A DNA stretch of 64,000 bases from a virus (Duplodnaviria > Heunggongvirae > Uroviricota > Caudoviricetes), in IMG/VR virus record IMGVR_UViG_2562617087_000024. One strand, 5' to 3'. Position numbers and translations under genes: made by a program. Of the stretch, positions 23,556 to 37,917 are shown in pieces. The notes beneath the pieces are model-generated. The model was not told the origin of the DNA. It worked only from the letters and a program-made list of their open reading frames with translations, and did no database searches. The stretch's first letter is position 1. Every line of letters begins with the position of its first letter.

Positions 23556-23608
23556 GGGCGGCAGAGCAGTCACGGAGTAAAACTGATACCGCCAAACGTC
23601 ACCAGAAA
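23556..23608 (-). ncRNA. dicF: DicF small regulatory RNA
   Basis: Minus-strand sequence tttctggtgacgtttggcggtatcagttttactccgtgactgctctgccgccc identical to recalled 53-nt E. coli DicF, followed by T-run and flanking processing stem. Confidence 0.9.
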
Positions 23609-30041: not shown

Positions 30042-30506
30042 TCTGGCCTGAAGCCTTTGCAATTACAGGCGTTGCTATAGCTATTGATTTTTTAGTATAT
30101 GTTATTTGTCGGTGGGGGTAAAAACGTTCGCCGGGATTCACACCAAAGGAGGGAATATGTCGGATGATATTTCACTGGCAATGGAAGGTGCGCTGGCTGT
30201 TATTGCTGTTGTGGGCGTTTACTGCCTGGTTGTGTTTTTGATGGATCGACTAGGGAACTGAATTCATTACGATATGGGAATTCCCATATCGGGTAAAAAC
30301 GGTTTGCGGTAAAGCGAGAGTTAAGTAGAATTGCTGCGGGTGCTTGAGGCTATCTGCCTCGGGCATGAACACCAACGGCAGATAGAGAAAAGCCCCAGTT
30401 AACATTACGCGTCCGGCAAGACGCTTAACATTAATCTGAGGCCATATCTATGCTCTACACACGTAGGTTAGCCTCTTACGTGCCGAAAGGCAAGGAGAAG
30501 CAGGCT

Positions 30507-30662
30507 ATGAAGCAGCAAAAGGCGATGCTAATCGCCCTGATCGTCATCTGTTTAACCGTCATAGTGACGGCACTGGTAACGAGGAAAGACCTCTGCGAGG
30601 TACGAATCCGAACCGGCCAGACGGAGGTCGCTGTCTTCACAGCTTACGAACCTGAGGAGTAA
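30507..30662 (+). CDS. Hok/Gef-family type I toxin
   Basis: 51 aa MKQQKAMLIALIVICLTVIVTALVTRKDLCEVRIRTGQTEVAVFTAYEPEE, closely matching recalled HokC/Gef; structured leader upstream and terminator 30720-30752. Confidence 0.8.
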   Translation: MKQQKAMLIALIVICLTVIVTALVTRKDLCEVRIRTGQTEVAVFTAYEPEE

Positions 30663-32551: not shown

Positions 32552-32926
32552 ATGCTCATAGATTTGGTTTTACCTTACCCGCCGACGGTGAACACTTACT
32601 GGCGACGCCGTGGCAGCACATATTTTGTATCAAAAGCCGGGAAGCGTTATCGCCGGGCAGTGGCGCTTATTGTTCGCCAGCAGCGACTGAAATTAAGCCT
32701 GTCCGGACGGCTGGCAATAAAAATTATTGCAGAGCCACCGGATAAGCGCCGCCGCGACCTGGACAATATCCTGAAAGCACCGCTGGATGCGCTGACGCAC
32801 GCGGGGTTGTTAATGGACGATGAGCAGTTTGATGAAATCAATATTGTACGTGGAAAGCCAGTATCTGGTGGACGTCTGGGGGTGAAGATTTACCCCATAA
32901 TGCTTGAAGGGCAGGTCAAAAAATGA
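32552..32926 (+). CDS. rusA: Holliday junction resolvase RusA
   Basis: 124 aa; …DKRRRDLDNILKAPLDALTHAGLLMDDEQ… matches the RusA catalytic region. Confidence 0.85.
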   Translation: MLIDLVLPYPPTVNTYWRRRGSTYFVSKAGKRYRRAVALIVRQQRLKLSLSGRLAIKIIAEPPDKRRRDLDNILKAPLDALTHAGLLMDDEQFDEINIVRGKPVSGGRLGVKIYPIMLEGQVKK

Positions 32927-33744
32927 AACTGGAAGATTTACCGAAATACTACTCCCCAAAATCCCCTGGCCTGACCGATGCATCGGCCTCAACGTCAAAA
33001 GATGCGCTGAGTATCACTGATGTGATGGCCGCGCAGGGCATGACACAGAATCGGGCTGAGATGGGGTTTTCTGCGTTCCTTGGGAAAATGGGCATTAGTA
33101 TGAATGACAGAGAGCGGGCAACAGAATTGCTGACAGAATATGCACTCAGTCGGTGTGATCGCGTGGCGGCGTTAAGAAAACTCCCGGCAGAAATAAAACC
33201 GGCAGTGATGCGTATTATGGCTTCGTATGCGTTTGAAGATTATGCCCGTAGCGCGGCGAGCAAAAAACAGTGCCCCTGCTGTCACGGAAAAAAATTTATT
33301 GAAAGCGAGGTTTTTACAAACAAGATCCAGTATCCGGATGGTAAGCCGCCAGTGTGGGCAAAGTGCACAAAAGGCGTGTATCCGTCTTACTGGGAGGAAT
33401 GGAAAAAAGTCAGGGAGGTGGTAAAAGTTGCCTGTCCGGAGTGTGGAGGGAAGGGAGAGGTATCCACTGCCTGTAAAGATTGTCGTGGGCGCGGTGTTGC
33501 CATTCATCGTGAAGAGTCGGAAAAACAGGGTGTGCCGGTTTTCAGAAACTGTCAGCGTTGTGGTGGGCGTGGCTATGAAAGATTACCTTCAACGGAGGCA
33601 TTTAATGCCATATGTAATGTAACCGATGCCATATCTCTTGATACATGGAAAAAAACAGTTAAACGTTTTTACGATACGCTGGTGGTGCAGTTTGATATTG
33701 AAGAAGCATGGGCAGAACAACAACTGAAAAAGGTGACCAGATAG
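32923..33744 (+). CDS. putative late-gene antiterminator (Q-like) with multiple CxxC zinc fingers
   Basis: 273 aa between rusA and the late promoter/terminator; four CxxCxGxG motifs. Confidence 0.5.
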   Translation: MKLEDLPKYYSPKSPGLTDASASTSKDALSITDVMAAQGMTQNRAEMGFSAFLGKMGISMNDRERATELLTEYALSRCDRVAALRKLPAEIKPAVMRIMASYAFEDYARSAASKKQCPCCHGKKFIESEVFTNKIQYPDGKPPVWAKCTKGVYPSYWEEWKKVREVVKVACPECGGKGEVSTACKDCRGRGVAIHREESEKQGVPVFRNCQRCGGRGYERLPSTEAFNAICNVTDAISLDTWKKTVKRFYDTLVVQFDIEEAWAEQQLKKVTR

Positions 33745-34318: not shown

Positions 34319-35377
34319 ATGTTTAATACTGTAAAAATATCCAGTTGTGAGTTAATCAACGCCGACTGCCTGGAATTTATCCGGTCGTTACCCGAAAATT
34401 CTGTTGACCTGATAGTCACGGACCCGCCGTACTTTAAAGTGAAGCCTGAGGGCTGGGATAACCAGTGGACGGGTGATGAGGATTACCTGAAATGGCTGGA
34501 CCAGTGTCTGGCGCAGTTCTGGCGGGTGCTGAAACCTGCCGGAAGTCTTTACCTGTTCTGTGGCCATCGCCTGGCATCTGACATTGAAATCATGATGCGT
34601 GAACGCTTCAGTGTGCTGAACCATATTATCTGGGCGAAGCCGTCCGGACGCTGGAACGGGTGCAACAAGGAAAGCCTGAGGGCGTATTTCCCCGCCACAG
34701 AGCGCATTCTGTTCGCGGAACATTATCAGGGGCCGTATCGTCCGAAAGATGCCGGGTATGAGGCGAAGGGCAGGGCACTGAAACAGCATGTGATGGCTCC
34801 GCTGATTTCTTACTTTCGTGATGCGCGTGCTGCCCTGGGGATAACGGCAAAACAGATAGTGGATGCCACAGGAAAGAAAAACATGGTGTCGCACTGGTTC
34901 AGTGCCAGTCAGTGGCAGCTACCGAACGAAAGCGATTATCTGAAATTACAGGCGCTGTTTGCCCGGGTGGCAGAAGAGAAGCATCAGCGCGGTGAACTGG
35001 AAAAGCCCCACCACCAGCTGCTGGAGACGTATACTTCACTGAACCGGCAGTATGCGGAACTGCAGAGTGAATATAAACATCTGCGGCGGTATTTTGGCGT
35101 GACGGCGCAGGTGCCGTACACGGATGTGTGGACGCATAAACCGGTGCAGTACTATCCCGGGAAACATCCGTGCGAAAAACCGGCAGAAATGCTGCAGCAG
35201 ATAATCAGTGCGAGCAGTCGTCCGGGTGACCTGGTTGCAGATTTCTTCATGGGGTCGGGTTCGACAGTCAAAGCCGCGATGGCGCTGGGGCGTCGTGCAA
35301 CTGGCGTTGAGCTGGAGACTGAACGTTTTGAGCAGACGGTCAGGGAAGTACAGGATTTAGTCAGTCAGAACGGATGA
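34319..35377 (+). CDS. DNA N6-adenine/N4-cytosine methyltransferase (DPPY motif), orphan
   Basis: 352 aa; motif IV DPPY (LIVTDPPYF) and C-terminal AdoMet-binding FxGxG (DFFMGSGST); no adjacent restriction endonuclease ORF. Confidence 0.85.
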   Translation: MFNTVKISSCELINADCLEFIRSLPENSVDLIVTDPPYFKVKPEGWDNQWTGDEDYLKWLDQCLAQFWRVLKPAGSLYLFCGHRLASDIEIMMRERFSVLNHIIWAKPSGRWNGCNKESLRAYFPATERILFAEHYQGPYRPKDAGYEAKGRALKQHVMAPLISYFRDARAALGITAKQIVDATGKKNMVSHWFSASQWQLPNESDYLKLQALFARVAEEKHQRGELEKPHHQLLETYTSLNRQYAELQSEYKHLRRYFGVTAQVPYTDVWTHKPVQYYPGKHPCEKPAEMLQQIISASSRPGDLVADFFMGSGSTVKAAMALGRRATGVELETERFEQTVREVQDLVSQNG

Positions 35378-35417
35378 TATTGCAGGATTAGTTACGTACC
35401 GTTATTATCCTGCGCCC

Positions 35418-35493
35418 GGCCCTTTAGCTCAGTGGTGAGAGCGAGCGACGCATAATCGCCAGGTCGCTGGTTCGAATCCAGTACAACGCGCCA
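35418..35493 (+). pseudogene. degenerate tRNA-like sequence (ileZ-type tRNA-Ile2 remnant)
   Basis: ggccctttagctcagtggtgagagc…ggttcgaatcc has intact D- and T-arms but G at position 33 and a 3' acceptor strand that cannot pair with the 5' end. Confidence 0.5.
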
Positions 35494-35970
35494 CACTTAT
35501 TTTCCCTGGCTCGCTTTTGCGGGCCTTTTTTTAAATGTCTCACAATTCAGGCGGTTGACTGTTGTCTGGTTTGCGGGGAGTTTGTTAAAAGAAACTGGCA
35601 TGGTGAATCCCCCTGTGCGGAGGGGCAATCAGCAACCAGGTATATGTGATAATCGCGGATTCAGGTGCTGATACTGAATTCACCGGGAGGCACCCGGCAC
35701 CATGCAAGAAAAAGAATGTGCATGCAAACATGCCCCTCTCCGGAGGGGCTTTTTTATGGGTAAAAAATGCCCGAATGGGTTCGGGCAATAGCATGAGATA
35801 CTGATATTGTTGTGTTGTTATCGTGTGGATTTTAACCAGGGTTTATCAGGCTGCGCAACTGCGTGGCCTTTTTTCATTTCTTGGGCTGTAGTCCCCGTGT
35901 GTCATTCAGGCTTCCGGACTACAGCCCACTCCATATCTGATTTAATACACTATCCCGGCCGGGAGGAATA

Positions 35971-37917
35971 ATGACATTTAAACATTATGATGTTGTCAGG
36001 GCGGCGTCGCCGTCAGACCTTGCTGATGCACTTGCGCAAAAAATTCGTGAAGGATGGCAACCATACGGTGGGCCGTTTTCTTCGTATACGGATGATGGCG
36101 CAGCACTTATTCAGGCGATTGTCGCAGAAGGTGATGTGAGCACACCTGTTGTGGTGAAGCTGACAGGTGGAGAAGGTGCAGTAATCAGCGCCACCAGAGA
36201 CCCGGAGTATTACTTTATTGTGGTTCTGGCGGGGCAGTCAAACAGCATGGCATATGGTGAAGGCCTTCCGCTGCCGGAGACATATGACCGTCCGGACCCG
36301 CGTATTAAGCAGCTGGCGCGCCGCAGTACGGTGACACCGGGCGGTGTCGCCTGTAAATATAACGACATCATTCCGGCGGACCATTGTCTGCATGATGTGC
36401 AGGACATGAGCCGCCTTAACCATCCGAAAGCGGACCTGTCAAAGGGGCAGTACGGAACCGTGGGGCAGGGGCTGCATATCGCCAAAAAATTGCTGCCGTT
36501 TATACCGGCGAATGCGGGCATTCTGCTGGTTCCGTGCTGTCGTGGTGGTTCAGCGTTCACCACCGGAGCTGATGGCACATACAGTGACGCGAGTGGTGCT
36601 TCGGAGAATTCAACCCGCTGGGGTGTGGACAAGCCGCTGTATAAGGACCTTATCGGTCGAACAAAAGCAGCACTGAAGAAGAACCCGAAAAATGTGCTGT
36701 TTGCCGTGGTGTGGATGCAGGGGGAATTTGATTTTGGCGGTACGCCGGCAAATCACGCAGCACAGTTTGGTGCGCTGGTTGATAAATTCCGTGCAGACCT
36801 GGCGGATATGGCAGGTCAGTGCGTCGGTGGCTCTGCTGACGGTGTTCCCTGGATATGCGGGGACACGACGTATTTCTGGAAGCAGAAGAACGAAGCCACC
36901 TACCAGACGGTGTACGGCAGCTACAAAAACAAAACGGAAAAAAATATCCATTTCGTACCGTTCATGACGGATGAGAACGGGGTGAATGTGCCGACGAACA
37001 AACCGGAAGAAGACCCGGACATTCCGGGTATCGGATATTACGGTTCGAAATGGCGTGACAGCTCAGCCACCTGGACGTCACAGGACAGGGCGAGCCATTT
37101 CAGCGCCTGGGCACGCCGTGGGATTATTTCCGACCGTCTGGCAACGGCGATTTTGCGCCATGCGGGAAGAGTGGCGCTAAACGCGGGGGCATCATCGACA
37201 GTATCAGAGGTGCGCCCGTCATCGCCTTCCGGTGCAGAAGCCACAGGCATCACAACACTGCTCTCTTACCTTGCCAGCGAGTCAGAGGGAAGCCTGAAAG
37301 TACAGGGATGGTCAGCCAGTGGCGGCAGGGCAGAAGTGGTCAGCGATGCGGAGGGAACCGGAGGTAAGGCAGTGAAGCTGACCAAGGAAGCCGGTAAAAG
37401 CAGCTGGGTGCTGGAGTACGCCGCGGGCAACGGTGCGGCTCTGTTACAGAAAGGGGGGCAGATTCGCTGCCGCTTTAAGGTTTCGGGAGCGCTGGCTGCG
37501 AACCAGTATGTTATGGCGTTTTACTGGCCGGTATCTTCACTGCCACAGGGCGTTGCCCTGACCGGAGACGGGGGGAATAACCTGCTGGCAGCGTTCTACA
37601 TCCAGACAGATGCAAAAGACCTGAATGTGATGTACCACAATGCGAAAGTGGCGACAAACAACCTGAAACTGGGAAGCTTTGGCGCATTTGATAACGAATG
37701 GCATGCGCTGGCTTTCCGCTTTGCCGGGAATAACAGCCTTCAGGTGACGCCGGTTATTGATGGTCAGGATGGTACACCGTTCACGCTGACGCAGTCACCG
37801 GTCAGTGCCTTTGCGGCGGATAAACTGCATGTGACAGACATTACCAGAGGTGCGACTTACCCGGTACTGATAGACAGCATTGCGGTGGAAGTGAACAGCA
37901 CAGACACTGCGGCATGA
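35971..37917 (+). CDS. prophage sialate O-acetylesterase NanS-p-like protein
   Basis: 648 aa in the Q-to-lysis position where NanS-p sits in related prophages; esterase-type GQSN motif; gggagga RBS. Confidence 0.8.
   Translation: MTFKHYDVVRAASPSDLADALAQKIREGWQPYGGPFSSYTDDGAALIQAIVAEGDVSTPVVVKLTGGEGAVISATRDPEYYFIVVLAGQSNSMAYGEGLPLPETYDRPDPRIKQLARRSTVTPGGVACKYNDIIPADHCLHDVQDMSRLNHPKADLSKGQYGTVGQGLHIAKKLLPFIPANAGILLVPCCRGGSAFTTGADGTYSDASGASENSTRWGVDKPLYKDLIGRTKAALKKNPKNVLFAVVWMQGEFDFGGTPANHAAQFGALVDKFRADLADMAGQCVGGSADGVPWICGDTTYFWKQKNEATYQTVYGSYKNKTEKNIHFVPFMTDENGVNVPTNKPEEDPDIPGIGYYGSKWRDSSATWTSQDRASHFSAWARRGIISDRLATAILRHAGRVALNAGASSTVSEVRPSSPSGAEATGITTLLSYLASESEGSLKVQGWSASGGRAEVVSDAEGTGGKAVKLTKEAGKSSWVLEYAAGNGAALLQKGGQIRCRFKVSGALAANQYVMAFYWPVSSLPQGVALTGDGGNNLLAAFYIQTDAKDLNVMYHNAKVATNNLKLGSFGAFDNEWHALAFRFAGNNSLQVTPVIDGQDGTPFTLTQSPVSAFAADKLHVTDITRGATYPVLIDSIAVEVNSTDTAA

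Follow-up and report, generated by a model that had tools for sequence, protein, structure and literature searches.

The ileZ-argN-argO tRNA gene cluster, carried by Stx-converting as well as other lambdoid phages (933W / VT2-Sakai type) and encoding a tRNA-Ile2 (ileZ, anticodon CAU) and two tRNA-Arg species (argN, UCG; argO, UCU), is the closest described system to the locus reported here. The cluster is found downstream of the Q antiterminator gene and, in some phages, downstream of a methylase gene. Tandem tRNA gene copies are known to be lost when neighbouring copies recombine unequally or through short homology, as in the classical example of tandem tyrT in E. coli. In lambdoid prophages of EHEC the site is the 'moron' location that follows PR', where convergent sRNAs have been reported (PMC4104026). 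More recently, tRNA-like hits near Pas and STnc100 sRNA genes have been read as integration-site remnants (preprint 10.64898/2026.05.13.724894). In the literature searched no description of an ileZ::argO hybrid was found, nor any paper naming ileZ, argN and argO together, and on phage tRNAs the search returned only a general statement regarding rare codons. The parent genes are well known and deletion between neighbouring tRNA genes is classical. Gene names are used here as in AP012531 and the Sakai annotations.

Here we describe a tRNA-like element within the window, by which we mean the whole 64-kb stretch of phage DNA that was analysed. The element at 35418-35493 is very probably a non-functional hybrid tRNA pseudogene, ileZ::argO, the term 'non-functional' being a prediction from its structure and from general tRNA biology. 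It resembles the intact cluster in its position, in the promoter-like block that precedes it and in its terminator, and differs from it by an internal deletion of 174-176 bp, by the absence of argN and of any functional tRNA gene, and by replacement of U33 with G. This is ordinary gene decay in a prophage and its scientific weight is small. It does provide an exactly mapped instance of the erosion of redundant prophage tRNA cargo, in which a deletion at a 7-nt T-arm microhomology inactivated three genes. The features of the locus are collected in Table 1.

Table 1. Features of the hybrid tRNA-like element and its surroundings; positions are those of the window.
Feature	Position	Strand	Description
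Q antiterminator gene	32923-33744		Upstream of the hybrid; PF03589
N6/N4 DNA methylase gene	34319-35377		Upstream of the hybrid; PF01555
Promoter-like site	35380-35408	+	-35 TTGCAG (35380-35385), 17-nt spacer, -10 TATTAT (35403-35408)
Hybrid tRNA-like element	35418-35493	+	Sequence GGCCCTTTAGCTCAGTGGTGAGAGCGAGCGACGCATAATCGCCAGGTCGCTGGTTCGAATCCAGTACAACGCGCCA
ileZ-derived part, tRNA positions 1-56	35418-35473	+	55/56 identical to ileZ of Stx2a_F422 and Nil3
T33G substitution	35450	+	G in place of U33
Crossover interval CTGGTTC, 7 nt	35467-35473	+	Common to the T-stem/T-loop of ileZ and argO
argO-derived part, last 27 nt	35467-35493	+	27/27 identical to the argO 3' end of Stx2a_F422 and Nil3
Intrinsic terminator of the tRNA cluster	35508-35532	+	GGCTCGC-TTTT-GCGGGCC, then a T run; terminator scan
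STnc100 sRNA gene	35569-35761	+	Rfam, 149.9 bits
AgvB sRNA gene	35762-35823	-	Rfam, 96.5 bits
nanS-p-like esterase gene	35971-37917		Downstream of the hybrid; DUF1737, SASA and DUF6645 domains

Sequence and structure of the tRNA-like element

The initial annotation had reported at this location a D arm, an anticodon loop containing CAT and a T arm, the whole resembling an ileZ-type tRNA-Ile2, together with a G at position 33 and a 3' acceptor strand unable to pair with the 5' end. Each of these observations was borne out by a cloverleaf layout of the sequence. The D stem (GCTC/GAGC) was paired at 4/4 positions, the anticodon stem at 4/5, equal to intact ileZ, and the T stem at 5/5, one pair being a G-U wobble, with a loop of TTCGAAT; the CAT anticodon occupies 35451-35453. 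Between the 5' strand GGCCCTT and the 3' strand ACAACGC of the acceptor stem two of seven pairs can form (G1-C72 and T7-A66). The G at position 33 replaces U33, to our knowledge a universally conserved position in tRNAs. An ileZ-type tRNA has a CAT anticodon and an ileZ body, both of which are found here, and also GGCCCTT/AAGGGCC pairing in the acceptor stem and A73, in place of which the hybrid carries ACAACGC and a discriminator G derived from argO. Acceptor-stem pairs help TilS and IleRS to recognise tRNA-Ile2.

The element was then compared with genes of intact clusters using tRNA-finding programs. ARAGORN returned zero tRNAs from the entire 64-kb window, and likewise with thresholds lowered to 95% and 80%, while every intact ileZ, argN and argO gene scored for comparison was detected. 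With the threshold at 60% a 90-nt 'tRNA-???' with a four-base anticodon (gtga) was produced, a call rejected as meaningless. Rfam RF00005 matched the hybrid locally over model positions 7-64 of 71 (37.3 bits, E = 3e-4), a span that takes in all but the acceptor stem, whereas the genes of intact clusters matched over their full length (ileZ 70.9-72.5, argO 70.1-71.4 and argN 52.2 bits). Minimum-free-energy folding gave a z-score of -0.97 for the hybrid, with the GCC of its 3' GCCA end base-paired, and of -1.55 when the trailer was included, compared with -4.0 and a complete acceptor stem for intact ileZ.

In public genomes the hybrid is labelled by PGAP as a 71-nt tRNA-Met beginning at cloverleaf position 6, with no pseudogene flag (2472-2542 in both L003 and L004). 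This label was found on 34/34 full-length carrier rows among the matches listed, the junction being present in at least 162 complete RefSeq genomes. PGAP is understood to use tRNAscan-SE. The mislabel inflates tRNA counts and introduces a spurious Met or Ile2 gene into inventories of STEC prophages. Taken at face value, the presence of a PGAP tRNA-Met in all carrier genomes listed would point to a functional, unusual tRNA (Met or Ile2) whose acceptor stem is non-canonical, as would an Rfam score above the gathering score of 29, the intact D, anticodon and T arms and the GCCA at the 3' end. We regard such a tRNA as extremely unlikely, given the two of seven acceptor pairs and the G in place of U33. 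A search upstream of the hybrid for GCGTTGT, the 5' strand that would pair with ACAACGC, found no such alternative strand. Moreover, the PGAP feature starts inside the cloverleaf, the Rfam match is local, ARAGORN rejects the sequence even at 80%, and a fusion of two different tRNAs fully accounts for the acceptor mismatch (see below). Neither ARAGORN nor PGAP thus provided a high-scoring tRNA with a proper acceptor stem, in keeping with the degenerate state proposed in the initial annotation.

Parentage and crossover point

BLASTN searches against phage genomes gave two-piece matches in which ~202 query bases covered ~377 bases in Stx-converting phages, and in these phages an ileZ-argN-argO cluster is annotated. 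Comparison with such clusters of related prophages had been suggested in the initial annotation, and the window was aligned with two intact references, Stx2a_F422 (with ileZ, argN and argO annotated) and phage Nil3. The alignment contained a single clean gap with collinear flanks on either side, and located the fusion junction. The ileZ-derived part holds the 5' acceptor strand, D arm, anticodon arm, variable loop and 5' T-stem strand, and its sole mismatch to the ileZ genes of Stx2a_F422 and Nil3 is at position 33. The argO-derived part holds the T arm, the 3' acceptor strand ACAACGC, the discriminator G and CCA. Base-by-base comparison with the parents limited the crossover on one side by an ileZ-specific G at 35466 and on the other by an argO-specific G at 35474. 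Measured against Stx2a_F422 the deletion is 176 bp long, and against Nil3 174 bp; it took away the 3' end of ileZ, argN in its entirety and the 50 nt at the start of argO. With 55/56 bases identical to ileZ and 27/27 to argO, the resemblance of the hybrid to tRNA is not due to chance. The sequence features expected of a hybrid tRNA pseudogene born by deletion were found, namely collinear parents, loss of argN, matching flanks and a junction in sequence common to both parents, and loss of function is predicted.

The T arms of ileZ and argO (GGTCgCTGGTTCaAATCCAG and GGTCaCTGGTTCgAATCCAG, respectively) are identical at 18/20 bases and the T arm of argN differs, which accounts for the position of the crossover. 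The broken acceptor stem is likewise explained by the deletion, because the partner of ACAACGC, the argO 5' strand GCGTTGT, was deleted and the GGCCCTT strand of ileZ cannot pair with it. The initial annotation had considered a remnant left by decay or by recombination, as well as a tRNA-derived regulatory element; the recombined remnant is the one that stood, in the form of an ileZ::argO fusion with a deletion of 174-176 bp, and no support was obtained for the regulatory element (see below). Its expectation that lambdoid phages usually carry functional tRNA genes at this place also proved correct, as intact ileZ-argN-argO clusters were found in Stx2a_F422, in Nil3 and in a sibling prophage. 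The latter, from an O145:NM strain, has the methylase gene upstream and STnc100, AgvB and the esterase gene downstream, with all three tRNA genes intact. As in the loss of tandem tyrT copies, recombination between similar neighbouring tRNA genes would have deleted the intervening DNA. In the hybrid, however, the partners differ (Ile2 and Arg) and only the T arm is common to them, so that a dead mismatch was left rather than one good copy.

These comparisons also bear on whether the element is a scar of site-specific integration, that is, an att fragment derived from a tRNA gene of the host and left behind when a prophage inserted or excised. Phages often integrate at tRNA genes, and the preprint cited above interprets tRNA-like hits close to Pas sRNA genes as such remnants. 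For the hybrid this interpretation was rejected as incompatible with the collinear alignment with intact clusters, and has hardly any probability left. The hybrid lies inside the prophage, between the Q/methylase and esterase/lysis genes, and not at a prophage end; its two halves each correspond to a phage cargo tRNA, and neither their order nor their flanks depart from those of intact clusters; and an integration scar would be a 3' tRNA fragment beside an integrase gene, not an ileZ body with an argO tail. The tRNA hits beside STnc100 at such loci are ileZ-argN-argO cargo clusters or their decayed remains, not att scars. As a general caution, tRNA-like hits in prophage late regions should not be taken for integration scars.

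For the ileZ::argO pseudogene we propose the following course of events. An ancestral prophage would have carried ileZ, argN and argO between Q/methylase and the lysis region. A short-homology deletion with its crossover in CTGGTTC, most simply by replication slippage or by recombination between the T-arm repeats, would then have taken out 174-176 bp, leaving an ileZ body joined to the 3' acceptor strand of argO and an acceptor stem unable to form. From established tRNA biology, an RNA whose T arm has no acceptor stem stacked on it should not be a proper substrate for RNase P, TilS or an aminoacyl-tRNA synthetase. Lacking the acceptor and discriminator features of tRNA-Ile2 as well as a free NCCA end, the hybrid is predicted to be neither matured nor charged. 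The allele may subsequently have gained U33G under relaxed constraint and have moved among lambdoid prophages of STEC by homologous recombination. With the promoter-like site and the terminator surviving, a transcript of ~115-120 nt may still arise, most probably an unstable by-product.

Distribution among genomes and history of the allele

The distribution of the junction was determined with a specific 42-mer probe, for which full-length matches were sought in 5,426 complete E. coli genomes. The junction was present in 162 of these genomes, in all cases on the chromosome, and carriers include the STEC serotypes O157:H7, O111:H8, O145, O45:H2 and O121. It was also present in 22 IMG/VR contigs, whilst no copy was found in the GenBank phage collection or in a one-genome-per-species collection. 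By comparison, 2,905 of the complete E. coli genomes hold the intact 3' end of ileZ, at 7,119 places overall, the maximum in any one genome being 10. Because the junction falls inside a short repeat, collapse of two similar T-arm repeats during assembly might be suspected. The chance of such an artefact is negligible, as a repeat of 7 nt does not collapse assemblies and the identical junction, with linked G33, is seen in independently assembled genomes (all 162) and in the 22 IMG/VR contigs.

The G33 form of the ileZ 5' half was detected in 160 genomes, and G33 chimeras number about 160-162. No T33 chimera was found among the 5,426 genomes, and no G33 was found in intact ileZ among ~7,000 copies in 2,905 genomes. 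U33 is therefore kept in every functional ileZ copy and lost only in the dead hybrid. The complete linkage of junction and G33 indicates a single origin of the allele. T33G would appear to postdate the deletion, although G33 is simply specific to the chimera and the order of the two changes is not directly readable. Taken together, the junction and G33 form a single-origin marker that could be used to trace recombination of lambdoid prophages across STEC serotypes.

In an alignment of 25 copies of the hybrid, 0.1% of cells differed from the window compared with 1.4-9% in the flanks, and variation within the hybrid was limited to a single column (two contigs with G17A). The hybrid follows at least two different upstream flanks, either the 3' end of the methylase gene or a flank identical to that of ileZ4 in Sakai Sp10. 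This pattern fits one origin followed by spread through prophage recombination. Swapping of flanks is easy because the invariant tRNA sequences give recombination a place. Low variability was considered as a sign of function and rejected, since the parental ileZ and argO genes are equally invariant across prophages; the hybrid inherited its near-invariance from them, and this carries no information on selection acting on the hybrid. The low variation could also be read as constraint, but is equally expected if the event was recent and the parental tRNAs are nearly invariant. Carrier genomes listed contain 6-9 places each that match an ileZ query, most of them ileZ copies, and loss of the cluster is tolerated because the same genomes hold several other ileZ copies.

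Neighbouring genes, transcription signals and a possible regulatory RNA

A promoter-like site precedes the hybrid, with a GC-rich stretch between its -10 hexamer and the tRNA 5' end. The -10 hexamer TATTAT is invariant in 7/7 otherwise diverged upstream contexts and the -35 hexamer is TTGCAG or TTGCGG in 6/7, the homology between contexts starting exactly at the -35. A strict sigma-70 consensus scan of 35300-35900 found no promoter, the promoter-like site matching the consensus at only 8/12 positions. This conservation makes it probable that the tRNA module is transcribed from a promoter of its own and does not depend on PR'. The terminator hairpin that follows the hybrid is the same as that found 3' of argO in intact clusters, and the hybrid probably still lies within a transcription unit.

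Directly 3' of the hybrid are the convergent sRNA genes STnc100 and AgvB. The STnc100 copy in the window has internal gaps relative to the 175-bit copies in L028 and L030. AgvB in the window matches the family consensus at every position, compared with a score of just 56 bits for the copy of the Sp9 type. On the minus strand PGAP annotates a partial pseudogene for a 'hypothetical protein' (L003 2637-2780, corresponding to approximately 35583-35726 of the window), which falls wholly inside STnc100 and is probably a spurious ORF call. Two further RNAs were identified in the same prophage, the sok antitoxin RNA (30338-30512, plus strand, 111.7 bits) and DicF RNA (23556-23607, minus strand, 76.7 bits).

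Given these surroundings, the hybrid might have been reused as a tRNA-derived regulatory RNA, a transcript running from the surviving promoter to the surviving terminator that would work as an sRNA or sponge, or would decoy tRNA-binding enzymes. Consistent with this are the conservation of the promoter-like hexamers, an intact terminator complete with U-tail, and the near absence of variation among 25 copies of the hybrid whose flanks differ. Prophage sRNAs are also known to be concentrated in this region, which already holds STnc100 and AgvB. We nevertheless consider reuse of this kind very unlikely. The low variation comes from two parents that are invariant everywhere and every copy derives from one event; the allele is rare, with 162 genomes against 2,905 with intact ileZ; and the fold is no more stable than that of shuffled sequence, whether the hybrid is taken alone or with its trailer (z-scores above). 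There is also no published sRNA at the hybrid site, though the one relevant screen would filter such sites out. In that Hfq-crosslinking study, of strain Sakai, peaks lying <=100 nt from sense-strand features and peaks on predicted tRNAs were removed. Sakai prophages Sp9 and Sp10 are without the chimera. A more specific form of the proposal, in which the ~115-120 nt hybrid transcript is stable in lysogens and sequesters TilS, RNase P or another tRNA-binding factor, or acts beside STnc100/AgvB, is improbable to a similar degree. Were the regulatory or decoy reading true, the hybrid would represent a tRNA pseudogene turned sRNA in STEC prophages.

Decay of related tRNA clusters

Erosion of redundant tRNA clusters at the same type of locus was also observed in strain Sakai. 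The argN gene of Sp9 (L030 39155-39234) lacks 12 nt in the anticodon arm, and that of Sp10 (L031 4782-4881) has accumulated many substitutions and indels; both are missed by ARAGORN and by Rfam. These two argN sequences are unannotated tRNA pseudogenes, and they share with the ileZ::argO pseudogene the lack of any pseudogene annotation. The mode of decay differs, in that Sp9 and Sp10 have small indels or substitutions confined to argN, with ileZ and argO intact, whereas in the hybrid one deletion killed all three genes.

Two minor observations concern related loci. In Stx2a_F422 the last ~48 nt of the methylase frame with its stop codon are kept before the ileZ promoter block (L001 1500-1548) without a methylase gene, and this tail looks like the remnant of an earlier deletion. 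In Sakai Sp10, argO4 (L031 4882-4958) shows two mutually compensating substitutions in its T stem, from ACTGG/CCAGT to AGTGG/CCACT, together with an A-to-C change in the T loop; the compensatory change indicates that argO is still under structural selection.
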